A DNA stretch of 57,102 nucleotides from positions 1 through 57,102 of the IMG/VR virus record IMGVR_UViG_3300031774_000016, one strand, 5' to 3'. Positions 4,332 to 50,081 of the stretch are shown piece by piece. The notes beneath the pieces were generated by a model that was given only the letters and a program-made list of their open reading frames with translations, made no database searches and was not told the DNA's origin. Every line of letters begins with the position of its first letter. The first letter of the stretch is position 1. Source of the stretch: a virus (lineage: Duplodnaviria > Caudoviricetes). The position numbers and the translations under genes were made by a program.

Positions 4332-4431
4332 GTGAATTATAGCAATAAAGTTATGTATTCCAAAGGTTATTTAAATACTTATCAATGGAGATTTTCTTCA
4401 TTAAACATTTCACATACAATAAAACCAGCGG

Positions 4432-4465
4432 ACAGGCAGCTGACACACCTGTGAAAAAATGTGTC
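4432..4465 (+). promoter_or_regulatory. Putative H-type pseudoknot in the TBDR leader
   Basis: ACAGG(4432-36)/CCTGT(4448-52) and GACACA(4442-47)/TGTGTC(4460-65), with A-rich linker GAAAAAA; ends just upstream of SD GAGGAG (4477-82). Confidence 0.5.
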
Positions 4466-4489
4466 TTAACCAAAAAGAGGAGAACGTTA

Positions 4490-7303
4490 ATGAATATACG
4501 TAATCTAACAATATCATTATTGATGACAACAGGATTGTTTGCACAAACTATCGTTGGGGTTGTTAATGGTGGTAGTGAACCATTGGTTGGAGCAAATGTT
4601 GCTGTTGTAGGAACTGATAAAGGTGGTGTAACAGATGAATCTGGTAAATACACTATCGATGTCGGAGCTGAAGGCACATACACATTAACTGCTTCATTCA
4701 TTGGATATTCACCTTTAACATTGGATGTTAAGGTGGGTGATATAGTTGGAACACTCAACTTCGATTTAGAAGAAGATGTTTTAGCTATGACAGCACTTGA
4801 GGTCTTGGCTTCAAGAGCTGATGAAAAGACACCTGTCGCATACACTAATGTGGTAAAAGAAGAATTGGAATTTCGTCTTGGTAGTCAAGATGTTCCAATG
4901 GCTTTGAATACTACACCAAGTGTTTATGCAACTCAACAAGGTGGTGGTGCGGGTGATGCTCGTATCAATGTTCGTGGGTTCAACCAACGAAATGTAGCCG
5001 TAATGATAAATGGTGTTCCCCAAAATGATATGGAGAACGGATGGGTTTATTGGTCTAATTGGGATGGAGTTGCAGATGCAGCACAATCAATTCAGATGCA
5101 AAGAGGTCTATCAGCTGTTAATCTAGCTACACCTTCAATCGGTGGAACTATGAACATTATTACTGATCCTGCTCAACACGAGAAGGGCGGTAAGTTCAAA
5201 CAAGAAACAGGCGCAGGTGGTTTTCTAAAAACTACTCTTAATTACAATAGTGGTTTGATTGGAGAAAAACTCGCGTTAAGTGGTACAATAGTACGAAAAA
5301 CAGGTGATGGACTCATCGACAAAACATGGACAGACGCTTGGGCATATTATTTTGGTGCGAGTTATCAAGCTAATAAAGATAACCGATTTGAATTATACGC
5401 TATCGGAGCTCCACAACGCCATGGTCAAAATCTATACAAACAGAATATCGGTGCTTATGACGCTGAATTTGCTGCGAGTATAGATGGATATGATGAAACA
5501 GCACTTGGAGAAGATGGTTCGTTCAAAGATGTTGGTCGATTCTTTAATCAGAATTGGTCACCTATTAGTTCAGACTATAAAGGAAAGCAATATTGGTATA
5601 TGTATGGTGATAAAACATCGGACAGATACAATCCTAACTTCCTAAATGAAAGAGAAAACTTCTTTCATAAACCATTGGTTAATCTTAACCATTTCCTAAA
5701 TATAAATGAAAAACTTCGTCTTTCATCTGTAGCTTATTGGAGTGGTGGATCTGGTGGTGGTACTGGTACTTATGGTAGGATTCCAACTCTCGACGCCGAT
5801 GGTGTTTTAGGGGGAGAAGATTATAAGTTTTATTATGGTCGTTCTCCTTGGACAAGAGATTGGAATACATTGGTTGCATACAACTCAGGTGACGCAGACA
5901 CAGTTTATGTTGATAAGAGAGTTCTACCAAGAACTCATGGTGATGGTAATAATCAATCAGTAGGTATTCTTCGTAACTCTATTAATCGTCAAAATACTCT
6001 CGGTTTAATCTCCAAATTAAACTACGAAGTTAATGATGATTTAGAGGTTCAAGTTGGTATTGATTGGAGAACTGCTAAAATCGAACACGCTCGTGAAGTT
6101 CGTGATTTGATGGGTGGTGATTACTATATGGATTACGCAGATGATAACTACGCAGATGGTAAAAGAGTTGGTTTAGGTGATATCATTGCATACCACAATC
6201 ATACTACGGTTGATTGGTTAGGTGGATTTGTTCAAGGTAATTATACTTTGGATAATTTAAACCTTTATGGTATGGGTGGTGTATCTAACATCAAGTATAC
6301 TTATCAAGATCATTTTACGGTTGAGAACGAGTTAATTGAAGCACCATCAATCACAACAATTCAAGCAAAAGGTGGAGCAGTTTACGATATAGATGATAAT
6401 GTTAGTGTATTTGCTAACGCTGGATATGTCGAAAAACCACCTATTATGGATAATGTGATTTACTTTGATGGTACGGTTGCACCAGATCCTGCTAATGAGA
6501 AATTCATTAGTTCAGAAGCTGGTGTTAATTTCAAATCTGATAAATTTGCTGTTAAGGCAAATGTATACAATACAGATTGGAAAGACCGAAACCTTACTAA
6601 ATCCGTAACCACAGGACAAGGTGATTCAGGTGATACTGATGTTATCTTCCTTAGTGGTATCCATCAAAAACATCAAGGACTTGAGATAGAAGCTTCTTCA
6701 CAAGTTCATTCAATGTTTAGGATAGACGCGGCACTTAGTTTTGGTAAATGGCAGTTCAATGGAGATGCTAGTGGTAATTATCAAGAAAACGAATATGATG
6801 AACAAGGTAATGTAAGTGGTTTGAAAACAACCAAATACAATTACGCACTTGATGGATTATTCGTAGGTGATATGCCTCAAACTTCATATGTCTTGGGTGG
6901 AACTCTAACTCCTGTTAAAGGACTTAGTATTCAAGCACTCTACAATATCTATGATGATAATTATAGTGATTGGAGTCCTGATTCTCGTGAGTATGATGTT
7001 GACGCAACAGACGATGATGGTAATTCAGTAGATGACGCAGATAGAGAACAAGTATGGATGGCACCTGGATATCAAAAAGTTGATATTCACGCTTCATATA
7101 AACTACCAACCGATTGGACTGGTGGATATGATGTGTCGTTGTCAGCACATTTGTTTAACGCTTTAGATGCTGTATTTGTACAAGATGCAGTAGATCACAG
7201 CCAATACAATAGTTATGGTGACAAAGTTCACGCAGCACACAACGCTGAAGTATTTCTTGGAACACCAAGATACTTTAACTTAGGATTGTCTGTTAATTTC
7301 TAA
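4490..7303 (+). CDS. TonB-dependent outer-membrane receptor with N-terminal carboxypeptidase-regulatory-like domain
   Basis: Start at 4490 (SD GAGGAG, signal peptide ...GLFA|Q); N-terminal GANVAVVGT..G..TD..GKYTI...SFIGY domain; plug INVRGF...VMINGVP...IQMQRG; C-terminal NALD...GTPRYFNLGLSVNF. Confidence 0.95.
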   Translation: MNIRNLTISLLMTTGLFAQTIVGVVNGGSEPLVGANVAVVGTDKGGVTDESGKYTIDVGAEGTYTLTASFIGYSPLTLDVKVGDIVGTLNFDLEEDVLAMTALEVLASRADEKTPVAYTNVVKEELEFRLGSQDVPMALNTTPSVYATQQGGGAGDARINVRGFNQRNVAVMINGVPQNDMENGWVYWSNWDGVADAAQSIQMQRGLSAVNLATPSIGGTMNIITDPAQHEKGGKFKQETGAGGFLKTTLNYNSGLIGEKLALSGTIVRKTGDGLIDKTWTDAWAYYFGASYQANKDNRFELYAIGAPQRHGQNLYKQNIGAYDAEFAASIDGYDETALGEDGSFKDVGRFFNQNWSPISSDYKGKQYWYMYGDKTSDRYNPNFLNERENFFHKPLVNLNHFLNINEKLRLSSVAYWSGGSGGGTGTYGRIPTLDADGVLGGEDYKFYYGRSPWTRDWNTLVAYNSGDADTVYVDKRVLPRTHGDGNNQSVGILRNSINRQNTLGLISKLNYEVNDDLEVQVGIDWRTAKIEHAREVRDLMGGDYYMDYADDNYADGKRVGLGDIIAYHNHTTVDWLGGFVQGNYTLDNLNLYGMGGVSNIKYTYQDHFTVENELIEAPSITTIQAKGGAVYDIDDNVSVFANAGYVEKPPIMDNVIYFDGTVAPDPANEKFISSEAGVNFKSDKFAVKANVYNTDWKDRNLTKSVTTGQGDSGDTDVIFLSGIHQKHQGLEIEASSQVHSMFRIDAALSFGKWQFNGDASGNYQENEYDEQGNVSGLKTTKYNYALDGLFVGDMPQTSYVLGGTLTPVKGLSIQALYNIYDDNYSDWSPDSREYDVDATDDDGNSVDDADREQVWMAPGYQKVDIHASYKLPTDWTGGYDVSLSAHLFNALDAVFVQDAVDHSQYNSYGDKVHAAHNAEVFLGTPRYFNLGLSVNF

Positions 7304-22234: not shown

Positions 22235-22903
22235 ATGTTCGAAACTATAAAAAAACTCGTAAAATCTTTTATGAGAAAACTCAAGAGTACTAATGGTAAT
22301 TCACTAGCTGAATTCGCTGTTACTACTGCAATGATGGCAACACTTGCTACAACAGCCGCACCAAAATTTGGACAAGTTGGAGCAGGAGCTAAAGAAAAGA
22401 AAACAATGAATAACATTGACAAAATTCTTACAGTTGCTAATAACTTTTACAACCAAACATTGTCTGAAGAAGGTAAAGGAAGATTTCCTGGACAAGAGAA
22501 GTATGATGTCGCTGTAGGTGGTGTCACTTTAGCTGAAGGAGCTTCTACTGATGAAACTCTTGAAGCTTATGTGGAAACAATACTTGACCAAAAAGTATCT
22601 TATACATCAGAGTTAGGTGAGTTCGTTTATGTATTTTCACCAGCATCAGATGATGATGACGCATTACAAGGTGATTGGATGAGTTTAGAATCATCAGTTG
22701 GTTACGATGGTAACGATGAAATTGGTGCTCTTGACTTCAAACAAGACTTTGGTAACAATGGTATGACAAGTCCATTTCAGGATGGTTCATACGCATATTT
22801 AGTAATACCAGGAAGTGGTAGTGGTACATCCGCACAAGCTCCTGTTCTTGTAGTAATAGATACTGAGAATCCATCTAAACTACATAAAACTTTAGTACCT
22901 TAA
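22235..22903 (+). CDS. Type IV pilin-like protein (atypical class III signal)
   Basis: Basic leader then G|NSLAE (Glu+5), Ala/Thr-rich helix ending in PKF; AAGGAG SD. Confidence 0.8.
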   Translation: MFETIKKLVKSFMRKLKSTNGNSLAEFAVTTAMMATLATTAAPKFGQVGAGAKEKKTMNNIDKILTVANNFYNQTLSEEGKGRFPGQEKYDVAVGGVTLAEGASTDETLEAYVETILDQKVSYTSELGEFVYVFSPASDDDDALQGDWMSLESSVGYDGNDEIGALDFKQDFGNNGMTSPFQDGSYAYLVIPGSGSGTSAQAPVLVVIDTENPSKLHKTLVP

Positions 22904-22935
22904 TCGAAAATAAAAAAACACCGAAAGGAAAAACA

Positions 22936-23376
22936 ATGAAGAACATATTAAAAAATACATCGAAAGGTTTCACATTGATTGAACTTGTAATGGTTACAAT
23001 CATATTAGGAATCTTAGCAGCTGTAGCAATTCCAAGATATCAACAAACGGTTGATAACGCAGAAGCAACAGCAGAAAAGGCATTTGTAGATATGGTATGG
23101 GCAGGAGTAGAACAAGAAGCTTCTGAAAGACTAACAGATGATGGACTTGAAGCATGGCCTTACAATCCACTAACAGTTATTGGTAGAAGCCGTAACATAT
23201 CAGTTACTCTATTTGAAGGAGTACCTGATGAGGATAATGAATGGCAGTTTAGTGTAGATGCAGCTGGTGAACCAGCAATCTTTCATCATAGAAGAAATGA
23301 CGAAATCTACTACTACAAATACGATTCATTGACATTTGAGTTAGACGAAGAACCTACACTTTACACAAACGAATAA
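22936..23376 (+). CDS. Type IV pilin (canonical prepilin cleavage/methylation site)
   Basis: KG|FTLIELVMVTIILGILAAVAIPRY. Confidence 0.95.
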   Translation: MKNILKNTSKGFTLIELVMVTIILGILAAVAIPRYQQTVDNAEATAEKAFVDMVWAGVEQEASERLTDDGLEAWPYNPLTVIGRSRNISVTLFEGVPDEDNEWQFSVDAAGEPAIFHHRRNDEIYYYKYDSLTFELDEEPTLYTNE

Positions 23377-23426
23377 TTAATGGGGGATTTGAAAATCATT
23401 TCCCCTATTTATTATAAAGAGGTATT

Positions 23427-23870
23427 ATGAGATTTAAACTCACAAATGATATTTTAGAAATTATCTTATTTGGATCAATAATGGTTACTTTAGGGTTCGT
23501 ATTTCTTAACGATGACGAACCCATTAAAGTGCAAAGTGAACCATCAGTTGAAAATTTTGATGACTATCCATTACAAGCATGGCAAACCTTAGATAGAAAA
23601 GGTGGAGAATGTGTAAAGGTTCGTTATCGTGTAGAGAAAAATAAAACTCGTTTATATATGATAAATGCCGATGGAAAGAAAGTTCACACACAACCAATAT
23701 CTTTAAGTCCACACAGAGATGGTAGGGATAGGATAGAAACATATGTTTGGAAACTCTATCGAACCGAGTGGACGGATAAGATAGCACCAGGTGAATACTT
23801 AATCATAGTGGGAACAGAGCATGATAAATCAGCATCAAGAAATCTTACTCTTGAAATCGACATAATGTAA
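23427..23870 (+). CDS. Membrane-anchored beta-sandwich (FlgD-Ig-like?) protein
   Basis: N-terminal TM; YVWKL...IAPGEYLIIV pattern. The fold is a guess. Confidence 0.45.
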   Translation: MRFKLTNDILEIILFGSIMVTLGFVFLNDDEPIKVQSEPSVENFDDYPLQAWQTLDRKGGECVKVRYRVEKNKTRLYMINADGKKVHTQPISLSPHRDGRDRIETYVWKLYRTEWTDKIAPGEYLIIVGTEHDKSASRNLTLEIDIM

Positions 23871-23989
23871 TGTGGATGCCATTTGTTATAATAACATTAG
23901 GTGTTTGTTTGATTTGGGAATTAGATGAAAGACAAACAATAAAAAAATATAAGAAGAAAAAAAGAATTGAACAACAGAGAGAAAAATGA
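23870..23989 (+). CDS. 39-aa single-TM microprotein (not in ORF track)
   Basis: MWMPFVIITLGVCLIWELDERQTIKKYKKKK...; coupled at both ends. Confidence 0.5.
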   Translation: MWMPFVIITLGVCLIWELDERQTIKKYKKKKRIEQQREK

Positions 23990-24618
23990 AATACTTATCA
24001 ATTGTATTATCAATAAGTGTTATATATTCACAAGTAGACGAACAAGTCTTTGCAGACCAAGGCATCGAAAGAACATCTGAATTTAAACGAGGTAAAGCCT
24101 ACGGACAAGATTGTGATGATACAGAATACAGAGATTACAAAGGGTATCCTGCTTGGAAAGGTTATGGTGGATGGATATCTGAATGTGATTCAATTCGTAC
24201 CGTAAATTTAGACAGAGAGTTTGCTGAAAAAGATAAAATCAGACAAAGAGAAAAGGCTATACAAGATAGTATTGATATGAAAGAAGCATTAGTAGAGATA
24301 GATAATTTAGATTTAGATGCTATGTGGGAAAATACGGTTTGGGTTGAGATAACAGATATAGAAGATACTATATATGGAGAAGTAGAACAGATTACAGCTG
24401 TTGCTGGTGTTCGTGGAGCGGAAGCAGAGGACGAGGCATTGAATCATTTATATTATAGAAGAAGTATGAAAGGTCTTGCTCTAATAGACCTACAAAAGGC
24501 CTATGGTAAATTAAAAATAAAAAGAGATAACTTAATTAAAACAAATCCTAAACATCCAAAGTTAGAAAAATTTGACAACCTCTTGTCACAATTACAAATT
24601 AAAATAAATAAATCATAA
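23986..24618 (+). CDS. Exported hypothetical protein
   Basis: Signal peptide MKYLSIVLSISVIYS|Q; TAVAGVRG motif. Confidence 0.65.
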   Translation: MKYLSIVLSISVIYSQVDEQVFADQGIERTSEFKRGKAYGQDCDDTEYRDYKGYPAWKGYGGWISECDSIRTVNLDREFAEKDKIRQREKAIQDSIDMKEALVEIDNLDLDAMWENTVWVEITDIEDTIYGEVEQITAVAGVRGAEAEDEALNHLYYRRSMKGLALIDLQKAYGKLKIKRDNLIKTNPKHPKLEKFDNLLSQLQIKINKS

Positions 24619-24724: not shown

Positions 24725-25051
24725 ATGAAGCGACTAATGTGTATGTTCTTAATGGGCTTGATTTCCGCTCAAACATTAAAAACAGCACTACCACAACCAA
24801 AAGAACCTTTCGTTCTTACTTACTACGACATTAGAGAAGATATACTTTTAAAGACGCCACACGGTAAAATAACAGTAGATTTTTTTATAAATGAGAGAGG
24901 AGAAGTAGAGGATCCAGTTATCAAGGATACTTTCAATATCAACCTTAATGAAGTAGTGTTGGATAAATTAAAAGAAACATCTTATTATCCAGCAACTCAG
25001 AATGGACGACCAGTTCGAATCAAATATACATTACCAATAGTATTTAAATAA
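24725..25051 (+). CDS. Stand-alone TonB C-terminal domain with signal peptide
   Basis: GKITVDFFINERGEVEDPVI...LNEVVLD...YYPATQNGRPVRIKYTLPIVFK matches the TonB_C pattern; no long TM anchor or Pro-rich linker. Confidence 0.85.
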   Translation: MKRLMCMFLMGLISAQTLKTALPQPKEPFVLTYYDIREDILLKTPHGKITVDFFINERGEVEDPVIKDTFNINLNEVVLDKLKETSYYPATQNGRPVRIKYTLPIVFK

Positions 25052-39558: not shown

Positions 39559-40605
39559 ATGGCATTATCAGGCGCATATAAAGCATTTAATGATGATAAC
39601 GATATAGTAAAAAACATTAAAAGCGTAATCTCATCAGGAATATGGAGTACAGGAGCGAATACTTTAACGGCCTTCTATACTCAATCCGCACAAAGTTCAA
39701 GTACTGGAAAGTATTTTTACGATGTATATAAAACAGACCATACCGATACTGAAAGAGAAGTTCAGTTTTCGATAACTTATGGTCATATACACGGAAGTGG
39801 TTCTTTAGGAACTGCGGGAGCCGCGACTGGTAATAGAGCATCAGCTGCGATACACGCACAATTTGTTAATTTACTATTAGGACCTAATGTAGAAAAATTT
39901 ACATATGGTGGTGATGTAACTTCAAAACATTTTTACGCATTATCTTTACGAAGAGCTCGTATGAGAGAAAAAGTAGATCCAGGAAATTGGGAACTACATT
40001 TAAGTGGTAGTGATGTAGCACTGCTACCAGGTACCGATTCACTTATTAAGTTAATTGACGATAGTGGAGCAACAACCAATCCAACCACAGGAGTTGGTGG
40101 TCGAGTATTTAATGTTGTTAGTGGTTCAATATCCACTGGAACAGCAGCTACCAATTTAGCAGCAGCATCTCAACCGGGTGGTGGATACGGATTATTCTAT
40201 CCTGATTTAGGACTCATCGTACTGAACGCTGACATACTACATGCGTCAGGTGGTATAGCAACAGTTACAGGTTCAAATACCGAAGGTGGTAATGTTAGTA
40301 AATTTTTCTCTATGATAGAAGGTGGTGGTAAATTCCAAGCCCGTAGAGAAGAAAGAATATCATCGACACATTATTTCTGTCGAGCAGGAAACAAAGAATT
40401 TAACTTTTCTAACAATCCAACATTCTTCACAGGTTCAACTGGTGAATTTACTCAACCTACATACTTTAAAGATCCAAAGTCGTACATTACAACCGTAGGT
40501 CTTTATAATGATTCTAACGAACTTTTAGCAGTAGCCAAGTTGAGTAAACCCGTTCTTAAATCTTTTTCAAGGGAAGCTCTTATCAAAGTAAAGTTAGATT
40601 TCTAA
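39559..40605 (+). CDS. Virion structural protein
   Basis: C-terminal YITTVGLYNDSNELLAVAKLSKP...VKLDF. Confidence 0.65.
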   Translation: MALSGAYKAFNDDNDIVKNIKSVISSGIWSTGANTLTAFYTQSAQSSSTGKYFYDVYKTDHTDTEREVQFSITYGHIHGSGSLGTAGAATGNRASAAIHAQFVNLLLGPNVEKFTYGGDVTSKHFYALSLRRARMREKVDPGNWELHLSGSDVALLPGTDSLIKLIDDSGATTNPTTGVGGRVFNVVSGSISTGTAATNLAAASQPGGGYGLFYPDLGLIVLNADILHASGGIATVTGSNTEGGNVSKFFSMIEGGGKFQARREERISSTHYFCRAGNKEFNFSNNPTFFTGSTGEFTQPTYFKDPKSYITTVGLYNDSNELLAVAKLSKPVLKSFSREALIKVKLDF

Positions 40606-40624
40606 TAGATAAGGAGCAAAACAT

Positions 40625-41710
40625 ATGTTAGGAAATGTCCATCCGCAAGACGTTTCAGTAGAACCATTCAAAGTCCATAAACGATTTCAATTTAGGACTG
40701 CCGATACAGGTAGTGGAGTTTATGCTTTAAAAGGAGTTAGTGGAAGTTTTCATAATTTCATGACAGGTTCTGCAAATTCTCAGAGCTTTGGTGTTTATAA
40801 TTCCATATCTGAAAGTATGGACAAACCAAAATCTACTTGGTATAGCCTTGGAACATATTACGAACTACCATTATATTATAGCATTAATCATTTGTATTAT
40901 GAAAAATTTAGTGGTAATCCAAAATTACCACACATGAATGAACAACCACAACCATATCTGAGTTGGGGTCCCTCTAATAGAAACAAAATGAATAGAGAAT
41001 TACACGACAGATGTTCAGTAATTTCGTTACCACAATCTTTAATCGGTGAAAGAATAAAACCTGGTTCTGTAAAAATACTTGATGATTCTAAAGATATAAC
41101 TTTAGATATAAGAGATGACGGAGATGGTAATTTATATGATTTTGCATTTAGTTCATCATATGCATCACATAGGTCAGCAAGTTTCGATACGGGTGTTGGT
41201 ATAACAGCACAAGGTAGTGGTAGTGTTGTCGGTAATGTATTTTATGATACTGGAATGGTAGTAATGACAAATACAGGTTCAAGTTATGTAAATGCATTTT
41301 TAGGATCAGGTACAGACGGATTTGAAATAGATTATAGAGCAACTCATACAATTTATCAACACGAATATACTGTAATTGCACCAGCAGGTAGATTCAGTAA
41401 TTCAAAAAATATAAGTGTTACACACCAAAGGAGTGGTAGTATAACCGTAAAAGAAGGGGCAAGTCCTCACTCTCTTTTTCCACCAGGAGATAATCCATCT
41501 GCAGCCGCAGGAAGCGGTTCGTTTAATAGTTCTTATGAGGCAACTGAATTTGTAAATTCTTTTGTAACTCATTCTCAGTTTGCACCCTATGTAACAACAA
41601 TAGGTCTCTACAACGAAAATAATGAACTATTGGTGATTGGAAAAACATCAAGACCTATAAGAAATGAACCAGATTTAGATATGTCATTTGTTTTACGATT
41701 TGATGTCTAA
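40625..41710 (+). CDS. Virion structural protein, paralogue of 39559..40605
   Basis: C-terminal YVTTIGLYNENNELLVIGKTSRP...LRFDV. Confidence 0.65.
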   Translation: MLGNVHPQDVSVEPFKVHKRFQFRTADTGSGVYALKGVSGSFHNFMTGSANSQSFGVYNSISESMDKPKSTWYSLGTYYELPLYYSINHLYYEKFSGNPKLPHMNEQPQPYLSWGPSNRNKMNRELHDRCSVISLPQSLIGERIKPGSVKILDDSKDITLDIRDDGDGNLYDFAFSSSYASHRSASFDTGVGITAQGSGSVVGNVFYDTGMVVMTNTGSSYVNAFLGSGTDGFEIDYRATHTIYQHEYTVIAPAGRFSNSKNISVTHQRSGSITVKEGASPHSLFPPGDNPSAAAGSGSFNSSYEATEFVNSFVTHSQFAPYVTTIGLYNENNELLVIGKTSRPIRNEPDLDMSFVLRFDV

Positions 41711-41773
41711 TTCGCCATATATATAATATTTATTATAGAATAAAAGAGACTGAAAGTCTCAGAAAGGAGTAAT

Positions 41774-42154
41774 ATGATAGGATTACTCGAATTATTAGTA
41801 GGTATTGTATTGGGTATTGGTATTTCAGATGCATTAGATAGTGCTAAACCAATCTACCCAAATGATTCCACTAAAGTTAGTACAGAATATTATATAATTT
41901 ATCAAGATAGATATTTTGGTAGAAGATATGGATATTCTTTGTTTAATGACTATTGGTGGCACACACCAAATAATTATCATTATGGATACCGCACTCAAAG
42001 AGGAACTGATGTTCCATTAAGAACTTGGGGTGGTACAAGTAAAGGTAGAAAAAGTGGTGAATATACCAAACCTAAAACTCGTAGAGACGGAGAGGGGGGT
42101 GGTAAAGGTCGACATCACGGAGGTAAAGGAAATAAAGGAAGAAAGAAAAACTAA
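41774..42154 (+). CDS. Membrane-anchored/exported protein with Tyr-rich middle and Gly/Lys/Arg tail
   Basis: AAGGAG SD; N-terminal hydrophobic helix. Confidence 0.6.
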   Translation: MIGLLELLVGIVLGIGISDALDSAKPIYPNDSTKVSTEYYIIYQDRYFGRRYGYSLFNDYWWHTPNNYHYGYRTQRGTDVPLRTWGGTSKGRKSGEYTKPKTRRDGEGGGKGRHHGGKGNKGRKKN

Positions 42155-42169
42155 AATAGGAGAATAATC

Positions 42170-42520
42170 GTGGACAACCAAACACAAGGTCTTGTCGAAG
42201 GGTTGATAGGACAATATGGTTGGTTATTTATTGTGGGTGTAATAACACTCATCTTTCAAAATACCATAAGAGAGGCAGTAGATGGTTTCATGGTCTTTTT
42301 GGGTAATGATTACAACGAAGATGATGTCGTAGAAGTTGATGGAGAACCAGGAAGAATAGTAAGAGTGAGTATGTGGAAAACCGTATTCTTTATCTATCAT
42401 ATAGTTGAGGGTAAAGTTGTCGGTGGTTCAAAGTTGGTAGTGGCAAATTCAAAGTTGAAAGATTTGAAAATAGAAAAACCATTAGCTAATCTTGATTTAT
42501 CTAAATATTCAAAAAAATAG
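42170..42520 (+). CDS. Minimal MscS-like protein (one TM plus beta domain)
   Basis: FQNTIRE.VDG...DYNEDDVVEVDGEPGRIVRVSMWKTVF...LVVANSKL resembles MscS TM3 and the middle beta domain. Confidence 0.65.
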   Translation: MDNQTQGLVEGLIGQYGWLFIVGVITLIFQNTIREAVDGFMVFLGNDYNEDDVVEVDGEPGRIVRVSMWKTVFFIYHIVEGKVVGGSKLVVANSKLKDLKIEKPLANLDLSKYSKK

Positions 42521-42570
42521 TATTGTGATATTTATAATTGTTAAGTAACGCTAGCAATATGGAGATATAA

Positions 42571-43857
42571 ATGAAAAAAATATTGATTGGTCTGTTAATT
42601 AGTGTAAATTTATTATCAGCCGAAAATGAACTTTGGAAATTTTTTAAGTATTCGACTGCATACGCAAGTTTCAGTTTGAATGCACCAAGACACCAAGATG
42701 ATAGGTTTGCTATTATAGGTGGGTTGAGTACAGGACAATTACAAGTCGGTAGAACCGAAAGAGAATTAAAACCTGATTTTCAAACATCATTTGGATTAAG
42801 AAAAATTGGTAGATTTAATTATGAACCAAAACGAGGTGTTAAGAATGCTGGAGTTGGTGGAACTTGGTATGATGGTTCAGAATCTAATGCTAATGAAAGT
42901 GCTACATTTGGTCCTGTTCAAGGATGGGAATATCTAATTAAATGGTCAGAAGGTAGACAATGGGGTAACGAATATTTAAATCAAGAGTATTGGGTAAGAT
43001 ACACAAGTGATTGGTGGATGGCTAAAATAGGTTGGACGGAGTTAGGATTAGAAGAACTTGAATATGGTCAAGGTGAATTAAGATTTAAATGGACACCACC
43101 TGTTTTAGATGACAAAATAAATTTAAGTATTGGTGTAAAACATAGACAACATCCTGTTTATGGATTTGATGCTATGGTATTGGATACGACTTGGTACAAA
43201 GGACAATGGTGGAATTTCGCAGAAGATGCCTTTGGTATTGATGATAATGCTTGGTTTACAGAAGATTATCATTTAAATGGTGACCGAGATATTCAACTAT
43301 ATGAAATAGATCCTGAAACTGGTGAGTTAAGACCGATTGAAGGTGGTGGTCCTTTTTGGAATGATGATGGTAGATTTGTCGGTGTTGATTGGCTGTGGAG
43401 AGATGAGAATGGTAAAATATTTGCATATACAGATAGAGAATATTTCTTATATCACTTTCCAAGAATGTTAGAAAAGTATATTGGTGGTGTCAAACAAGAA
43501 ATAGGATATCAAAGAGAAACTTCAATAGTATTGGGAGCTGATTTTTATCATTATGATGATTATTGGTGGTTACATGCTTGGGGTAATTGGTTACCTTACC
43601 ACTTTGGACACGATAAATATTCATATCATAACGGAGCACATTACCAAACTCATTTAGAAGAAGGTGGTGAACCAAATGAATTTAAATTTAAAGACGCGAT
43701 GTGGCATAATTGGCACGATTATGATTTTGGAGCAATTTTTGGTGTAAAAATTAAAGATAACTTAGGTGTGTTCGCAGAAGGTCGTTATTTAAATTATTGG
43801 GAAAGACCAGCATACGATATTAAGTTCGGTATAAATTATCAATTTATGGGATTTTAG
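42571..43857 (+). CDS. Putative outer-membrane beta-barrel protein
   Basis: Signal peptide (..LLSA|E), Trp/Tyr-rich amphipathic strands, C-terminal IKFGINYQFMGF. Confidence 0.65.
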   Translation: MKKILIGLLISVNLLSAENELWKFFKYSTAYASFSLNAPRHQDDRFAIIGGLSTGQLQVGRTERELKPDFQTSFGLRKIGRFNYEPKRGVKNAGVGGTWYDGSESNANESATFGPVQGWEYLIKWSEGRQWGNEYLNQEYWVRYTSDWWMAKIGWTELGLEELEYGQGELRFKWTPPVLDDKINLSIGVKHRQHPVYGFDAMVLDTTWYKGQWWNFAEDAFGIDDNAWFTEDYHLNGDRDIQLYEIDPETGELRPIEGGGPFWNDDGRFVGVDWLWRDENGKIFAYTDREYFLYHFPRMLEKYIGGVKQEIGYQRETSIVLGADFYHYDDYWWLHAWGNWLPYHFGHDKYSYHNGAHYQTHLEEGGEPNEFKFKDAMWHNWHDYDFGAIFGVKIKDNLGVFAEGRYLNYWERPAYDIKFGINYQFMGF

Positions 43858-43867
43858 GAGAAAACTT

Positions 43868-43999
43868 ATGAGAGATTGTGAATGTAATGGTTGTCAATGT
43901 GAGTATGCATGTGAATGTGGATGTTGTTGTGAATGTGAATGTGAAGCATGTGCATGTGTAGTGATATGTGAATGTGAGTGTTGTAAAGACACCGAGTAG
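43868..43999 (+). CDS. Metallothionein-like Cys-rich peptide (43 aa, 17 Cys; not in ORF track)
   Basis: AGGAG SD at 43856-60; MRDCECNGCQCEYACECGCCCECECEACACVVICECECCKDTE; exactly fills the gap between two genes. Confidence 0.8.
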   Translation: MRDCECNGCQCEYACECGCCCECECEACACVVICECECCKDTE

Positions 44000-44011
44000 A
44001 AAGGGAAAAAA

Positions 44012-44614
44012 ATGTTAAAAAAAGTATTGACTTTACTGAGTATTATATTTATATTCAGTTGTGATGATAGAATAGAAGAAATAGGACCTCAAATAATCAA
44101 TATGTGGATTGATGGTGAAGTTGTGAATGTGGAAGAAAGATACAAACAAATAACCACTTATGGTTCAAGAGATACTTATATAGATTCAATTGGTTCAGAC
44201 GGAACTTGGATTGTAGAACAAAAAACGAAAAAGATTTTCGTAATACATTTTCAAGTAGAAGATGGTAGAGTTCTTGCATTAAATGAACATTATGCACTTA
44301 TTTTTGTTGATTGGGATGCAGCAAACTACACCACAAGTTTAATTAACGAAGGATTTTATAGTAACCCACATACAGATGATAAAGAAGTATTGTTACAAAT
44401 TGTAGGACCTTATGATTACACAATAGGTGCACAAGCATCTATTACTGAGTTGAAAATGATTTCATCAGGACAATATGCAACTGGTAGATGTGAAGGAAGT
44501 TTTTATAATCCATTTACTGATTCTGTAATGGAAGGTGTATTGGAATTTGAAAATGTAAGAATAAGTACAGATGAAGCTAATACTACTTATTTTGATATCA
44601 CTCGTGATAATTAA
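44012..44614 (+). CDS. Putative lipoprotein
   Basis: MLKKVLTLLSIIFIFS|C lipobox. Confidence 0.7.
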   Translation: MLKKVLTLLSIIFIFSCDDRIEEIGPQIINMWIDGEVVNVEERYKQITTYGSRDTYIDSIGSDGTWIVEQKTKKIFVIHFQVEDGRVLALNEHYALIFVDWDAANYTTSLINEGFYSNPHTDDKEVLLQIVGPYDYTIGAQASITELKMISSGQYATGRCEGSFYNPFTDSVMEGVLEFENVRISTDEANTTYFDITRDN

Positions 44615-44643
44615 GAAAGTAGTATAAAACACGGAGAAAAGTA

Positions 44644-45237
44644 ATGGCAGATCAAGCCAGAACAAAACAAGGACAGAGATTGGGAGAATTGTTATTGGAT
44701 GCGGATATCGTAACCAAACGACAACTTGCCAAAGCTGCTCAAGCACAAGTAAAGGGTGATAAAAGAAAAATAGGTGAAATACTTGTAGAATTAGGATTTT
44801 GTACAATAGAAGATTTAACAGACGCGATGTTAGATACACATCACGAAGAAGTAAAGGAAGAAGTAGTGAATAAACCAACAGAAATTAGTGAAGAAAAAGT
44901 ATTAGGTACTAAATTCACTTTATCAGTTCAAACAATGGTAGCTGCAGGAACAGGATTAGCCTCATTGATTGGTATGTGGTATGCCTTGCAAGCTGAAATA
45001 CAAGAAGCTAAAGAATTACCGAGTTTAGAAAGTTTATATTCTGCGGAATACCCATCAAGACCAGAGGGATATAATTGGCCAAGATCTTACGAACAATATA
45101 AAGACCAAGTAGGTTCACTTCAAGAAGATATGGATGATGTGTATGATAAATTGGATGAATATGAAGAAACGATTGAAGAACTTGAGAAACTCGTAGCAGA
45201 TTTACGAGTCGAAGTTGCAAAGAAAAGGAATAAATAG
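44644..45237 (+). CDS. MshEN-domain single-pass membrane protein with C-terminal coiled coil
   Basis: Tandem RLGELLLDADIVTKRQLAKAAQAQ / KIGEILVELGFCTIEDL; TM TMVAAGTGLASLIGMWYAL; coiled-coil tail. Confidence 0.8.
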   Translation: MADQARTKQGQRLGELLLDADIVTKRQLAKAAQAQVKGDKRKIGEILVELGFCTIEDLTDAMLDTHHEEVKEEVVNKPTEISEEKVLGTKFTLSVQTMVAAGTGLASLIGMWYALQAEIQEAKELPSLESLYSAEYPSRPEGYNWPRSYEQYKDQVGSLQEDMDDVYDKLDEYEETIEELEKLVADLRVEVAKKRNK

Positions 45238-45239
45238 TT

Positions 45240-45680
45240 ATGAATAATGGAAAATTAATTAAAATTACTTTTAAAACATTATGTGTCATGGGATTAGCAT
45301 TTATACTATGTGGTAATGTTGTAAATGGTCAAGATAAAAAACCAAAGGTAGAAGTTATCAATGATGATAATTTTAAGAAATCAATATCAAAGGGATTTTT
45401 TCTTATAAAATTTACATCTGGTTATCAAATGACTACACTTGATAAGAAATTATTTGATGGAGTTAGTGGATTTGAAGGTTGTAAAATAATCGAAGTTGAT
45501 GCGGGAAATGCAAAAAAAGTAATTAAAAAACTTAGAATACGAAACTATCCATCTTTAGCATTATTTCACAACGGAAAAAAGAAAGAAGTTTGGAAGGCCG
45601 ATATGGATGGTGTTGTAGATATTAATAATAAAGATATCAAAAAGGCTATTTCAAATGCGATAGCAGGTGATGTGTTTTAA
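45240..45680 (+). CDS. Exported thioredoxin-fold protein lacking CxxC
   Basis: INDDNFKKSI..GFFLIKF...EVD...LRIRNYPSLALFHNGK; signal-like N-terminus. Confidence 0.7.
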   Translation: MNNGKLIKITFKTLCVMGLAFILCGNVVNGQDKKPKVEVINDDNFKKSISKGFFLIKFTSGYQMTTLDKKLFDGVSGFEGCKIIEVDAGNAKKVIKKLRIRNYPSLALFHNGKKKEVWKADMDGVVDINNKDIKKAISNAIAGDVF

Positions 45681-45683
45681 TGT

Positions 45684-46340
45684 ATGAACATCGCAACGAT
45701 AGCTGGACATTTAGCATTTGGGTTAATAGCATTTTCGTTTCTTGTAAAGGATATACTATATCTTAGACTACTTTCAATTTTAGCAAGTCTATTCTCAGTA
45801 TTTTATAATTTTTATATACCAGACCAACCCATGTGGTTGGCAATCAATTGGAACATTGTCTTTGTTCTTGTAAACCTTTATCACATCGCTGTTATCATAT
45901 ATGAAAAACGACCTGTCCACATGGACGATAAGAATAATGAGTTATACGAAACCCTATTTAAAGATTTAACACAAGTAGAGTATTTAAAAATTAGTAAGGC
46001 TGCTATTTGGAAAACATTTCAACCTAATGAATTTATTACAAGACAAACACATCTTGTTCCAGATTTAGTATTGATATACAATGGAACAATAGATGTATTA
46101 GTAAATGGTAAAAAGGTGGCACAATTAAAAGATGGACAATTTGTTGGTGAGATGTCATTCCTTACAGAGAAATCAGCAACTGCAACTTGTATTGTAAAAC
46201 ATCCGTGTGAATGTTTAGTTTGGAAACAAAGGGAGTTTAAAGAATTGTTAAAAAGAAACCCATCATTATATTTCACACTTCAAACTCTGTTGAGTGCACA
46301 AGTTTCAGATAATCTTGTAAGTAGTTCAAAATCTGAATAG
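45684..46340 (+). CDS. Popeye-like membrane protein with cyclic-nucleotide-binding domain
   Basis: Three TMs (DILYLRLL...WNIVFVLVNLYHI), ELY..LF, then LIYNG.IDV...LKDGQFVGEMSFL...ATAT cNMP fold. Confidence 0.85.
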   Translation: MNIATIAGHLAFGLIAFSFLVKDILYLRLLSILASLFSVFYNFYIPDQPMWLAINWNIVFVLVNLYHIAVIIYEKRPVHMDDKNNELYETLFKDLTQVEYLKISKAAIWKTFQPNEFITRQTHLVPDLVLIYNGTIDVLVNGKKVAQLKDGQFVGEMSFLTEKSATATCIVKHPCECLVWKQREFKELLKRNPSLYFTLQTLLSAQVSDNLVSSSKSE

Positions 46341-46355
46341 TCTATATTTATTAAT

Positions 46356-46748
46356 ATGTTAAAACTCAAAGACCTACTCGTAGAAAGAATTGATTATGAA
46401 GATACTGCCCGTATGTTGGTCAAAAAATATGGCCTTCGTTCCAAAGTAAGATTTGGTAAAGTCAAGGGACAAAACGAAGCAGATTACGATTGGATTAAAG
46501 ATGTTATAAATTTAAAACGAAAATACCCAAATGTCAAAGAATTTGTTGTATCGGTTTTACACGAGATAGACCACGCAAAGATGAGATATAAAATGGGAGC
46601 TAAAAAATACGAACACGAATACACGATGGCTGGACAGGACGCAGTAGAAAAAGGTGGTGATTTCCACGATGATAATTTCTACGAAGAACAGGCTGAAAAG
46701 TGGGCACAAAACGAATATAGAAGAAAATGGAAGCGAAAATTTAAATGA
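46356..46748 (+). CDS. Putative zinc metallopeptidase-like protein
   Basis: VLHEIDH (HExxH) and downstream NFYEEQA. Confidence 0.6.
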   Translation: MLKLKDLLVERIDYEDTARMLVKKYGLRSKVRFGKVKGQNEADYDWIKDVINLKRKYPNVKEFVVSVLHEIDHAKMRYKMGAKKYEHEYTMAGQDAVEKGGDFHDDNFYEEQAEKWAQNEYRRKWKRKFK

Positions 46749-46777
46749 TTTGAGAAATTTAGGTTATACTTATTTAT

Positions 46778-47110
46778 ATGAAAACAAGATCTGCCAAGAA
46801 TAAAGGTAAAAGGTTACAAAATAATATTCGAGATATTCTTCTCGAAAACTTCAAAGAATTAGAGCCTGATGATATTAAATCCACTACTATGGGAGAAAGT
46901 GGAGAGGATATTCAGTTATCACCTGCTGCTCGTAAATTAATTCCATATGCTATTGAATGTAAGAATCAAGAAAAATTAAACATATGGGAATCATTAAAAC
47001 AGGCAGAGTCTAATAGTGAGAAAGGTAAACCTGTTTTAATATTTAAGAGAAATCGTAGTAAAACCTACGCTGTTTTAGAAATTCAAGACTTTATAAACTT
47101 AATAAAATAA
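46778..47110 (+). CDS. Holliday-junction resolvase-like PD-(D/E)XK nuclease
   Basis: SAKNKGKRLQ...GEDI...IECKNQE...PVLIFKRNR. Confidence 0.7.
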   Translation: MKTRSAKNKGKRLQNNIRDILLENFKELEPDDIKSTTMGESGEDIQLSPAARKLIPYAIECKNQEKLNIWESLKQAESNSEKGKPVLIFKRNRSKTYAVLEIQDFINLIK

Positions 47111-47111
47111 T

Positions 47112-47978
47112 ATGAATACTGATATAGGATTTGATAAAACTTATGTCATCAGTTTAAAATCACGACAGGCTAGGCGTGATACAATAAAACAAACACTAAA
47201 TGGAATTGATTATGAGTTTGTTGATGCAATAAATGGTAAAAATCTTAAAATAAGAAAATTAATTAAGGATGGTATATTAAATACAGAGTATTATGATCCA
47301 GGTGGAACTTGTAATCGTAGTATTATAGGTTGTAGTTTATCTCATATAAAAACATGGAAAAAATTTTTAAAAAGTGGACTCGATACTTGTTTAATATTAG
47401 AAGATGATATTTTTTTGACCAAAGAAATTGTTAGGTCACAGATGGATGTGGAATATGGAAAGCCACGAAATGAATATCAAATGATACTTGATGAAATAAA
47501 TTCATTAGATACTTGGGATGTTATTTTTTTAGGAAAAAAAACCGAAGATGTAGATGGTGAGAGAATTACGGATAATTTAATTAAACCAATATTTGGAACT
47601 TCACGATATGGTGCACATGCATATATCATAAACAAAAATAGTGTGAAAAAATTACTTGATAGTTATGTACCAATAACTTATGCAGTGGATGTTTTTATGG
47701 ATGAGACATTATCTAATTTAGATATAGTTTCAGTTAAAAAGTCTTTTATTAGACAAAGGGGTGATTTGGTAGAAGATGAACTTTTACTTAATCCACAACC
47801 AAAAAACACACCAGATTCCGATACATTTTGGAATCTATTATATAAAGGAAAATTAACTACTTGTTCCGTTGATGATATAGTAGAATCAATAGAATTTTCT
47901 AATTACAAAAAGAGTTCAAATCATTTAAAAGTAGGAAACCAACCAATGGTTAGCATGAAACTTAGGACTTATGGTTAA
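47112..47978 (+). CDS. Glycosyltransferase family 25
   Basis: YVISL..RQARR, FVDAING, IGCSLSH, LILEDD, GAHAYII, AVD. Confidence 0.9.
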   Translation: MNTDIGFDKTYVISLKSRQARRDTIKQTLNGIDYEFVDAINGKNLKIRKLIKDGILNTEYYDPGGTCNRSIIGCSLSHIKTWKKFLKSGLDTCLILEDDIFLTKEIVRSQMDVEYGKPRNEYQMILDEINSLDTWDVIFLGKKTEDVDGERITDNLIKPIFGTSRYGAHAYIINKNSVKKLLDSYVPITYAVDVFMDETLSNLDIVSVKKSFIRQRGDLVEDELLLNPQPKNTPDSDTFWNLLYKGKLTTCSVDDIVESIEFSNYKKSSNHLKVGNQPMVSMKLRTYG

Positions 47979-49131
47979 TTTTGACGAAGAATACGATGTC
48001 TACGTGGCATCAGAAGTACGTGATTTTTCTATCGGTGGGGTTTCATTTTGGGTAGATAGTTGGATTAGGTATGTCGTTCCATATTTAAGAGTAAAACCAA
48101 TTCTTATTATAGAAGTAGAACCAACAGATAAGTGGATGAATTATGCATCACAATTTGTATCGGTTATAGACCGACCAGGTTCTAAACATAAATACGAATG
48201 TAGTTATCCATCAATTGGAGTAGAAAATTATTTTTCTTTACCTGATACAAAATATACAAATGAGATAATAAAAAAATCAAGGAGAGTTCACATTTTATCG
48301 TGTCCATATGGTTCGTTGTATAAGAAAAAAGTAAAAAGTGTGTTAAATAAATATGGTATTATAGACACTGCAATTATACATAGTTTGGAAACCCAATCAG
48401 TATCTACGAGTAGCAAATATTTTAACATAAGTAAAAGAAAAACTAAAAATCAAGAACGTTCATTAGAATTACAAGAAAATATAAATAATACAGCAAATGA
48501 AACTATATGGATAGGTATAAATAAAGAAAGTGATATCACACACCATATCCCAAATTTTTACAACTTTACAGAAAATTATGAAAAAGAATCATGTATGAGT
48601 AATGTTGTTGGTTATGCGGCAAGGTCGGAAGCTAGAAAGAATTTTTATTACTTACAAAAATTAGAATCTAAGGCGTTTACTGCTGATGATATTATTACTT
48701 ATTGGGAAACAAGTTTTAAAAGTAAGATAAAATTTGATAATGTTGAAGTTATACCATATTCACGAGATGGAGTACACGATTTTTTCTCAAGAACTGATTG
48801 GGGGATTTTTCATGGGGCATATGAAAACGAACCTTTTGGATATTCAATATTTCAGGCATTAGATTATAATAAAATTCCTATTATATCTAAAGATTGGTGT
48901 GTAGATTATGAGTATCCGTTTAGGTCATCTACACAAAAAGAATTTGAAGAACAAGTTGCTAAAATATCTAAGTTATCACAGAAAGAACGTGATACTTATA
49001 TAAGAGGCTTTAAAGTACATTTATCTAAATATACAAATACAAATGAATGGAGAGATAAACTATTGAGTATATACAATAAGTCAGAAAATGAGACTTGGTT
49101 ACCTGGTAGTTTACAACCAAGTAATTCATAA
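47971..49131 (+). CDS. Putative GT-B-fold glycosyltransferase
   Basis: N-terminal GGV..W, GYAAR.E.RKN, EPFGYSIFQALD..KIPI resembling the GT4 E-x7-E region. Confidence 0.6.
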   Translation: MVNFDEEYDVYVASEVRDFSIGGVSFWVDSWIRYVVPYLRVKPILIIEVEPTDKWMNYASQFVSVIDRPGSKHKYECSYPSIGVENYFSLPDTKYTNEIIKKSRRVHILSCPYGSLYKKKVKSVLNKYGIIDTAIIHSLETQSVSTSSKYFNISKRKTKNQERSLELQENINNTANETIWIGINKESDITHHIPNFYNFTENYEKESCMSNVVGYAARSEARKNFYYLQKLESKAFTADDIITYWETSFKSKIKFDNVEVIPYSRDGVHDFFSRTDWGIFHGAYENEPFGYSIFQALDYNKIPIISKDWCVDYEYPFRSSTQKEFEEQVAKISKLSQKERDTYIRGFKVHLSKYTNTNEWRDKLLSIYNKSENETWLPGSLQPSNS

Positions 49132-50081
49132 TGATAGATCAAAACAAATTAATATATCTGATTGACAGAACGATAGGTTCTAAAGGTCAGAAGCTTAAAA
49201 AACAAAATGAGTATATGTATTGGTCACCCTTTACTTCTCATCACAAACCAAAATTACAAATCAATATCATTACTCAAAAATGGCATTGTTGGATTAGTAA
49301 TCAAGGCGGTCATAAGCTATATCAGTTATTTAAGAAGGTAAATGCTACTTACGAACAGCTAACAGAGTTACGAGAAATTGTAGGAGATACTCGGCCACTA
49401 TCATCAAATAATGAGAAAGTCAAGGAAAAAGTTTGTGTATTACCAAAAGAATTTTTATCATTAGAACATAAACATTCTTCTACGGCATATAAACACTCGA
49501 TGTTATATTTGAATAGGAGAGGAATAACTCGTGAAGATATATTAAAATATGGTATTGGTTATTGTGAAGAAGGAATGTACACAAATAGAATTATTATTCC
49601 ATCATATGATGGTAATGGACAATTAAATTTCTTTGTAGGTAGAGATATATTTGAAAGTAAAATGAAATATAGAAACTCTCCCACACAAAAAGATATCATA
49701 GGATTTGATTTATTCATCAATTGGGATGAACCAATAGTACTTTGTGAAGGTCCTTTTGATGCTATTGCCATCAAAAGAAACGCCATTCCATTGTTTGGTA
49801 AAACCATATTACCAAAATTAAAATTAAAAATTATAGAGAAAAAAGTAAAAACTATATATATATCATTAGACACGGACGCAATAGGAGATGCAATGAAGAT
49901 GGTTGAAGATTTCATGAATCATAATATTGACGTCTACTTTGTTAAACTAACGGAGAAGGACCCATCGGATTTAGGATTTGAAAAAGTTACAAAACTTCTT
50001 AAAGAAACTGATAAGATGAGGTTTTCAGATTTGATGAGGATGAAATTAAATGGTAGAACAAGAAAATATATGGAAATTTAA
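49131..50081 (+). CDS. DNA primase (DnaG-like, TOPRIM)
   Basis: YLNRRGI, NRIIIP, FFVGR, KYRNS, LCEGPFDAI, LDTDA, KDPSD. Confidence 0.9.
   Translation: MIDQNKLIYLIDRTIGSKGQKLKKQNEYMYWSPFTSHHKPKLQINIITQKWHCWISNQGGHKLYQLFKKVNATYEQLTELREIVGDTRPLSSNNEKVKEKVCVLPKEFLSLEHKHSSTAYKHSMLYLNRRGITREDILKYGIGYCEEGMYTNRIIIPSYDGNGQLNFFVGRDIFESKMKYRNSPTQKDIIGFDLFINWDEPIVLCEGPFDAIAIKRNAIPLFGKTILPKLKLKIIEKKVKTIYISLDTDAIGDAMKMVEDFMNHNIDVYFVKLTEKDPSDLGFEKVTKLLKETDKMRFSDLMRMKLNGRTRKYMEI

Follow-up and report, generated by a model that had tools for sequence, protein, structure and literature searches.

Cyclic di-GMP (c-di-GMP) is the main signal by which bacteria switch between motile and attached life, and phages depend on its outputs, with pili and surface glycans serving as their receptors. 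LapD and Alg44 are inside-out c-di-GMP receptors built around a degenerate EAL or PilZ sensor. On the phage side, Tip and Aqs1 are small soluble anti-pilus proteins which bind the ATPase PilB. Here, we analyze a gene of a 57,102-bp virus record from IMG/VR (IMGVR_UViG_3300031774_000016; ‘the window’ denotes this whole stretch of DNA) whose product carries MshEN_N, the ligand-holding half of the MshE/PilB N-domain, in a phage-borne, membrane-anchored architecture. We call it the MshEN-TM gene (TM, transmembrane). We tentatively read its product as a bitopic inner-membrane, inside-out c-di-GMP receptor acting on the envelope, a reading to which we give slightly less than an even chance.

The MshEN_N motif is best described in MshE and PilF. 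According to the passages of Wang et al. 2016 (PMC5013675) which deal with the motif, its consensus is RLGxx(L/V/I)(L/V/I)xxG(L/V/I)(L/V/I)xxxxLxxxLxxQ, the canonical spacer comprises five non-conserved residues, and the isolated module (MshE 1–62) binds c-di-GMP at 0.35 µM. Mutation of G11 abolishes binding in MshE. In the parts of the PilF affinity study on which we draw (PMC11731258), the GSPII-B domain (K167, L196) binds c-di-GMP at 6 nM, which shows that K or L is tolerated at the first motif position. The same parts report binding at ~0.5 µM for GSPII-C (P335), whose first residue is not R either, and a 77- to 158-fold loss of affinity, without abolition of binding, upon a single Q-to-E change.

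The MshEN_N module and its predicted membrane anchor

The N-terminal 54 residues of the MshEN-TM protein are a stand-alone MshEN_N four-helix module. The NCBIfam model NF053729 (‘c-di-GMP_motif’, 53 positions) matches residues 12–62 with 44.9 bits (cut-off 38, E 7.2e-12) and recognizes all 21 scanned relatives at E <= 0.001 (best 1.5e-14). A phmmer search against the PDB sequences retrieved Geobacter PilB (5zfr, E 4.3e-6), PilF (6f8l) and V. cholerae MshE (5htl, E 7.9e-4), each time with a match over residues 8–62. An AlphaFold2 (AF2) model built from an 18-sequence alignment predicts helices at residues 13–19, 25–36, 43–50 and 55–62, with block-mean pLDDT values of 72–82 over residues 11–60. 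Each of the first 12 Foldseek matches of this model is to an MshE or PilF GSPII domain, in most cases a c-di-GMP-bound one (root-mean-square deviation (rmsd) 1.3–2.2 Å over 52–56 columns). The matches to 5htl, 8pfa and 8pdk reach probability 1.00 with rmsd values of 1.3–1.7 Å over 53–55 columns, and their E values are only 0.016–0.14 because the domain is short. The superposition on 5htl gives 1.3 Å over 55 columns at 36% identity. Pfam PF05157 (MshEN) finds no match in the protein at E <= 10 and the α/β MshEN_C subdomain is absent. In the ATPases which match the query, PF05157 covers another stretch, namely this MshEN_C part, so that the missing match is not evidence against the domain.

Motif I, RLGELLLDADIVTKRQLAKAAQAQ (residues 12–35), fits the consensus apart from D21, where G is expected, and A32, where L is expected; its key positions are occupied by R12, L13, G14, L28, A32 and Q35. 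Motif II, KIGEILVELGFCTIEDLTDAMLDT (residues 42–65), has K in place of R and a T where the consensus ends in Q. An initial annotation of the window had placed both halves of the MshEN motif in the first ~60 residues, with exactly these two deviations in the first half, and both points hold. It had given the second half as KIGxxLVxxG; this motif is in fact complete through residues 42–65 and not limited to its first half.

Residue conservation was counted in 72 unique aligned relatives from 80 viral loci. Motif I begins with K in 57 and R in 15 of them, followed by L or I, and G14, L17, L28 and Q35 are found in all 72. Position 32 is L in 58 sequences, which makes the A of the window a minority form. 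In motif II, G44 is invariant, G51 and C53 each occur in 58 relatives, and the aliphatic positions L/I43, L/I58 and L/M62 are kept.

Beyond the module, the protein continues through an acidic linker and a hydrophobic segment into a conserved motif and a coiled coil (Table 1). Linker lengths of 12–49 residues occur in the family; in the window protein, residues 64–92 hold eight D/E and four K/R. The linker is followed by a juxtamembrane region where T89, K90, F91 and T97 are invariant and S82 and E83 are present in 70 and 71 of the 72 relatives. The hydrophobic segment 95–116 has a Kyte–Doolittle value of 1.1–1.4 in the window protein (family mean 1.55, range 1.11–2.20), and AF2 places a helix over residues 95–124 with low confidence. 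The stretch EYPSRPEGYNWPRSYEQYKDQVGSLQEDMD (residues 135–164), of the pattern EYPSxPxGxNWPRSYEQY, is the best conserved of the whole protein: its mean pairwise identity is 84%, compared with 66% for MshEN_N and 74% for motif I within it. E135, Y136, P137, S138, G142, N144, W145, S148, E150, Q151, Y152, V156 and L159 are all invariant. From residue 149 to the end, seven heptads can be laid out in a single register with 13 of the 14 a/d positions hydrophobic, and AF2 predicts a helix over residues 149–196 (block-mean pLDDT 57–86, above 79 at residues 161–190). The acidic linker, single TM helix and coiled coil of the initial annotation are thereby recovered, and so is its statement that there is no ATPase: PF00437 (T2SSE) has no match and the protein ends at residue 197. 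The Pfam scan of the protein likewise gave no homology to the domains of LapD or Alg44.

A search of the ESM Atlas with residues 88–197 returned only unnamed viral clusters of ~120 residues. Short forms with MshEN_N and a TM segment but lacking the YPS..WP motif exist (P0129, P0144 and L082). Conversely, the initial annotation had raised the question of TM–coiled-coil homologues without MshEN; three proteins in which the C-terminal module follows other N-termini (P0138, P0151 and P0163) were seen, each of them a singleton on one short contig (894–2500 bp), and we do not trust them as MshEN-less forms.

The MshEN-TM gene is translationally coupled to a gene for a secreted, redox-dead thioredoxin-fold protein. 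The latter is the next gene in 80 of 80 loci (the fetched loci among 171 viral contigs with a relative; further locus counts refer to this set), with its start at -4 to +14 nt from the MshEN stop. Its product has a signal peptide, and the CxxC motif is missing in all of 21 aligned relatives. An apparent natural fusion of both proteins in locus L012 was ruled out by translation, which shows a stop codon and a 9-nt gap. A complex prediction with residues 117–197 and the mature thioredoxin-fold protein scored 0.02 against a mark of 0.32, which is not evidence either way.

Taken as a receptor, the protein would work as follows. The N-module would sit in the cytoplasm and bind host c-di-GMP, and the coiled coil would make the protein oligomeric. 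Ligand binding would be relayed through the membrane to the C-terminal conserved part, and this part may act on an envelope target jointly with the thioredoxin-fold partner. As candidate targets we consider the type IV pilus, the timing of lysis and the exclusion of other phages. The reading draws on the identity of the domain, on the conserved G14, G44, L28 and Q35, on the envelope features of the protein, on GGDEF domains in the presumed host and on the H-NOX and pilin genes in the neighbourhood (see below).

Several observations weigh against it. The turn glycine of motif I is replaced by D21 in 71 of the 72 relatives. Motif II starts with T (40), K (15), S (11) or A (4), and its last residue is H (22), S (22), T (9) or N (9) instead of Q. 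The spacer V-K-G-D-K-R has six residues and is conserved (G38 invariant), as opposed to the canonical five, and HMMER opens a one-residue gap relative to PilB. In addition, PilF GSPII-A loses binding through small deviations, as described in the corresponding part of a paper from the group behind the PilF affinity work (PMC12002112). The predicted TM helix has only moderate hydrophobicity, and there is little positive-inside signal (1.97 vs 1.29 K+R). For these two reasons the N-in/C-out topology is a prediction, drawn from an N-terminus without signal peptide and from the cytoplasmic location of c-di-GMP. AF2 confidence is low at residues 65–102 and 125–141. Among five long relatives, none encodes a phage c-di-GMP synthase (GGDEF), and the pilin cassette discussed below also occupies at least two other genomic contexts (at least three in all). 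Judged from its residues, binding of c-di-GMP by the N-module is plausible, and the balance leans in its favour; we put it no higher, given the degenerate first and last key positions of motif II throughout the family.

The same deviations could mean that the fold was kept and nucleotide binding was lost, leaving a mere protein-interaction or oligomerisation head on an unrelated envelope protein. The degenerate ends of motif II, the six-residue spacer and the aspartate at the turn would all suit such a head, and natural non-binders of the same fold are described in the relevant parts of PMC5013675 (XpsE) and PMC12002112 (PilF GSPII-A). XpsE, however, carries drastic changes (G11V, L29R, G40L and others; PMC5013675, same part), and substitutions of this type are absent from the MshEN-TM family. 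Motif I is near-canonical and constrained, with G14, L28 and Q35 invariant, and the c-di-GMP motif model recognizes every scanned relative. Furthermore, the H-NOX neighbour found in four loci and in L082 fits nucleotide signalling. We consider a loss of binding unlikely.

The initial annotation had suggested a c-di-GMP sponge or a decoy of the PilB N-terminus. As a sponge, the protein would sequester c-di-GMP and push the host to a low-c-di-GMP state, and its stand-alone binding module, which comes without an enzymatic output domain, would suit that role. One site per 197-residue membrane protein is a poor buffer, however, and the membrane anchor, the periplasmic motif and the secreted partner, which a sponge does not need, are what is most conserved. 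We hold a sponge to be very improbable. Both suggestions explain the protein poorly because its best-conserved part lies beyond the membrane and the secreted partner accompanies it in every locus.

Neighbouring genes and the pilin cassette

The gene pair belongs to a block located between tail-fibre-like genes and replication genes. A phage-specific gene for an outer-membrane barrel precedes the MshEN-TM gene in 76 of 80 loci, and no homologue of it was found in the 101 genomes sampled from the presumed host phylum. A c-di-GMP-gated exopolysaccharide export set of the Alg44/AlgK/AlgE kind was considered and dropped: the barrel best matches EstA, KdgM and NalP, and no synthase was found. A small membrane protein resembling the MscS β-domain is encoded at 42170–42520 (PF00924, E 0.021 in the window and 3.2e-7 in the L004 relative). 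Between the barrel and lipoprotein genes, a 43-codon open reading frame (ORF) with 17 cysteines in CxC repeats (43868–43999) is a candidate gene only. Of the 80 loci, 58 have the lipoprotein gene, which in most of them immediately precedes the MshEN-TM gene. Its place in some relatives is after the thioredoxin-fold gene rather than ahead of the MshEN-TM gene. In the lipoprotein, acidic residues come right after the lipobox cysteine.

This arrangement invites a role in lysis, where the protein would be holin- or i-spanin-like with a c-di-GMP module setting the timing, the thioredoxin-fold protein would be antiholin-like and the lipoprotein would be the outer-membrane partner. We take T4 T/RI and Rz/Rz1 to be the analogous systems. 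The bitopic layout, the TM segment rich in small residues and the periplasmic coiled coil would be in keeping with this, as would a core gene just after the tail-fibre-like genes that adjoins lipoprotein and secreted partner genes. A cytoplasmic domain of 90 residues is, however, unusual for holins and spanins. No endolysin gene was recognised in the vicinity; PF00959 and PF01510 are found in none of the five long relatives, which are themselves incomplete. Neither Pfam nor PHROGs places the MshEN-TM protein in a holin or spanin family, a miss which cannot exclude them because holins and spanins are too diverse. Control of lysis by this set of genes appears improbable to us as a whole.

Downstream of the thioredoxin-fold gene, the window encodes a Popeye-like membrane protein with a cyclic-nucleotide-binding domain (45684–46340; PF04831, E 1e-14; PF00027, E 4.4e-14), and such a gene lies 3′ of the thioredoxin-fold gene in 26 of 80 loci as well as in the window. 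By its domain content it is a predicted second membrane-bound second-messenger receptor, two genes after the MshEN-TM gene. At the other end, four of 80 loci (L011, L029, L076 and L080) carry a gene for H-NOX, a haem-NO/O2-binding protein (PF07700, E 2e-46), whose stop overlaps or abuts the MshEN-TM start. The same is found at the MshEN-TM gene of L082, an unrelated phage type with a tape-measure gene upstream.

No terminator-like sites were found on the + strand between 41760 and 47054, and a promoter scan gave no meaningful excess over shuffled sequences. Contigs from RNA libraries (runs of three studies) show full identity to parts of the gene and span the junctions 44614/44644 and 45237/45240. 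They are only a weak hint of expression and of co-transcription with the neighbours because DNA may be present in such libraries, and stretches which no such contig covers carry no information.

The initial annotation had also noted pilins elsewhere in the window and linked the protein to the host type IV pilus. The pilins were recovered as a prepilin gene and an adjoining Flp-like gene (Table 1), which form a cassette with two genes of unknown function. In the window, a gene with a TonB_C domain (24725–25051) follows it. As for the link, one part stands: a cassette with the Flp-like gene, one to three prepilin genes and the two unknown genes lies directly 3′ of the MshEN–thioredoxin pair, on the same strand, in 25 of 80 loci, and four of the five long relatives have prepilin motifs. 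The arrangement is not fixed, however. Viewed from the cassette, the MshEN pair is just upstream in 10 of 42 loci and the arrangement of the window occurs in ~16, while at least nine of the remaining cassette loci with at least 5 kb of upstream sequence show neither. Because the cassette is found in several contexts, the adjacency may reflect an insertion hot spot. The pilin–MshEN link is thus suggestive.

These data also bear on whether the tethered MshEN_N mimics the N-terminus of host PilB or MshE and blocks or redirects the type IV pilus, with or without c-di-GMP. Such interference could exclude pilus-dependent phages or aid the loading of phage pilins. The module is homologous to PilB N-termini, which are known docking sites of regulators (the PilB–PilZ complex 7lkm is among the fold matches), the presumed host phylum has MshEN-bearing ORFs of ATPase size, and the cassette neighbours the gene as just described. 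Nevertheless, the module shares only 34–39% identity with the host ATPase N-termini, it lacks the MshEN_C half, and the cassette is also found away from the MshEN-TM gene. A decoy moreover leaves the conserved periplasmic part and the secreted partner unexplained. We therefore judge interference of this kind unlikely and retain the envelope receptor as our tentative choice.

Table 1. Features of the MshEN-TM gene, its product and its neighbourhood (window coordinates unless a locus is named)
Feature	Position	Strand	Details
Ribosome-binding site GGAG	44633..44636	+	7 nt 5′ of the ATG; read from the sequence
MshEN-TM ORF	44644..45237	+	197 residues, ATG start; MshEN_N, linker, TM, conserved motif, coiled coil
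MshEN motif I (residues 12–35)	44677..44748	+	NF053729 match; alignment of 72 relatives
Spacer VKGDKR, six residues	44749..44766	+	G38 invariant; R41 in 52/72
MshEN motif II (residues 42–65)	44767..44838	+	degenerate at first and last positions
Acidic linker, variable length (residues 66–77)	44839..44874	+	42% mean pairwise identity
Juxtamembrane motif P-x-E-(L/I)-S-E-(D/E)-..-T-K-F-T-L-S-V-Q-T (residues 78–94)	44875..44925	+	74% mean pairwise identity
Predicted TM helix, G/A/S/T-rich (residues 95–116)	44926..44991	+	hydropathy; AF2
Best-conserved stretch, presumed periplasmic (residues 135–164)	45046..45135	+	84% mean pairwise identity
C-terminal coiled coil (residues 149–197)	45088..45234	+	heptad register; AF2
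Secreted thioredoxin-fold partner gene, no CxxC	45240..45680	+	PF00085, E 1.8e-6
Lipoprotein gene	44012..44614	+	signal peptide ending FIFSC, then DD; directly upstream of the MshEN-TM gene
Outer-membrane β-barrel gene	42571..43857	+	AF2 pTM 0.64; Z 15–16 to the 12-stranded barrels EstA, KdgM and NalP
Pilin cassette (Flp-like, prepilin, two unknowns)	22235..24618	+	often right after the MshEN–thioredoxin pair in relatives
Flp-like gene	22235..22903	+	
Prepilin gene	22936..23376	+	TIGR02532, 28.4 bits vs cut-off 16.3; PF07963
H-NOX genes of relatives	L011:5438–5989, L029:5444–5995, L076:5438–5989, L080:5444–5992, L082:5439–5993		stop overlaps or abuts the MshEN-TM start

Phage lineage and presumed host

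The phage is an uncultured marine myovirus. The estimated completeness of the window is 32%, its genes are all encoded on the + strand and its G+C content ranges from 30 to 37%. T4-type baseplate genes (gp25-like and gp6-like) are present, as are genes for a primase, an SbcCD-like nuclease and a RusA-like resolvase; the primase shares only ~39% identity with those of Flavobacterium phage immuto and Microcystis phage Mel-JY01. Further host-like genes encode Hsp20, a peptide deformylase and a member of the IMPDH/GMP-reductase family (1330–1803, 13434–14084 and 14918–16102). Among 50,697 GenBank phage records, neither tblastn nor megablast found a match to the MshEN-TM protein or to positions 40000–50000 of the window.

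In environmental data, relatives are numerous. A word-indexed protein search retrieved up to 4019 relatives at E <= 0.01, and the 120 listed share 54–100% identity; the exact window protein is present on 43 contigs. An exhaustive search of 50%-identity representatives gave 617 matches at E <= 0.001, 14 of them at E <= 1e-30. Full-length relatives among these representatives measure 116–219 residues, and longer proteins match only via repeated MshEN_N units. The block 42571–46340, with at least 96% of the sampled words, is nearly whole in 14 metagenome runs (seawater, marine or viral) from at least 11 studies, some of which are possibly the source of the record. Across 185,579 species genomes, no cellular full-length homologue was found, only three contigs of metagenome-assembled genomes (MAGs; L082–L084) with the TM or C-terminal part, and all three look like phage DNA. 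Within a widespread lineage of marine phages, the MshEN-TM gene belongs to the core and is not a sporadic moron.

Judged by sequence similarity, the host is probably a member of the Marinimicrobia (SAR406), for which we know of no cultured phage–host system. A TonB-dependent receptor gene of the window (4385..7303; CarboxypepD_reg and Plug domains) shares up to 71% full-length identity with genomes of the phylum sampled as G002, whose record carries the name Candidatus Marinimicrobia, and has matches in 98 of 101 of them. The two domains had first suggested a Bacteroidota host. This assignment is weakened: in a sample of the Bacteroidia, the class to which a Flavobacteriales MAG belongs, identity to the same receptor peaks at 47% and mostly lies at ~35%. 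The Popeye-like neighbour is uninformative on the host: weak matches to its cyclic-nucleotide domain came from 13 genomes in one sample of 101 and from none in the other sample of 101.

GGDEF domains occur in 81 of the 101 genomes of the G002 phylum. NF053729 exceeds its cut-off in 51 of the 101, and these matches usually open ORFs of 553–590 residues. The likely host thus makes c-di-GMP and appears to own MshEN-bearing ATPases of the PilB/GspE type, a call based on ORF size and N-terminal sequence only. Given the low identity to these N-termini, the phage module is not a recent copy of host PilB. Across the 101 genomes, only the N-module finds matches, these being the host ATPases, bar contig G002:C15, which is probably mis-binned.

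Overall, the phage can probably read a lifestyle signal of its host and act on the cell envelope. A wider proposal would be that a lineage-wide transmembrane receptor, in some phages with an H-NOX gas sensor, reads whether the host is free-living or particle-attached and switches an envelope programme, for example to remodel the pilus with phage pilins, to time lysis or to exclude superinfecting phages; we see this as possible but rather doubtful.

Comparison with known systems

In the full-text literature searched, we found no description of a phage-encoded MshEN or other c-di-GMP receptor. Cellular MshEN_N-TM forms may be listed among the domain architectures in the supplement of PMC5013675, and a part of PMC7785012 mentions viral diguanylate cyclases. 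What is new here is MshEN_N in a phage-borne, membrane-anchored architecture. If the receptor reading is true, this would be the first viral c-di-GMP receptor and a new minimal inside-out design, made of MshEN_N, one TM helix and a coiled coil. It would offer a very small, testable layout for relaying a cytoplasmic nucleotide signal to the periplasm, and a handle on the biology of SAR406.

Among the closest described systems are the ATPases MshE, PilB and PilF. The phage module shares their four-helix fold (5htl and 8pdk, rmsd 1.3–1.4 Å over 53–55 columns, 34–38% identity) and their two tandem 24-residue motifs, with the key glycines, the leucines and the first glutamine kept. In contrast to these enzymes, the phage-encoded protein lacks both MshEN_C and the ATPase and is tethered by a TM helix. 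Its spacer has six residues and is conserved, where theirs has five and varies; its turn carries D, and its motif II lacks the R and Q at the ends.

The c-di-GMP-activated glycosyltransferases of the NfrB type, whose MshEN is C-terminal, are likewise membrane proteins in which this domain controls an envelope process. The phage N-module matches the MshEN region of their models NF012033 (19 of 21 relatives) and NfrB NF008411 (8 of 21). These matches span ~55 residues and are far below the family cut-offs, and the phage protein has no glycosyltransferase.

Tip and Aqs1 are similar in being small phage-encoded proteins aimed at the type IV pilus ATPase. The MshEN-TM protein, by contrast, is itself like a portion of PilB, and it is a membrane protein, part of which is presumably periplasmic.

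In its predicted layout, the protein recalls LapD and Alg44, where a cytoplasmic sensor, a membrane span and a periplasmic part acting on a partner are combined with no enzymatic output. The likeness extends to neither sequence nor fold: the sensor is MshEN_N in place of a degenerate EAL or PilZ domain, and one TM helix with a coiled coil takes the place of HAMP and a periplasmic or MFP-like domain.

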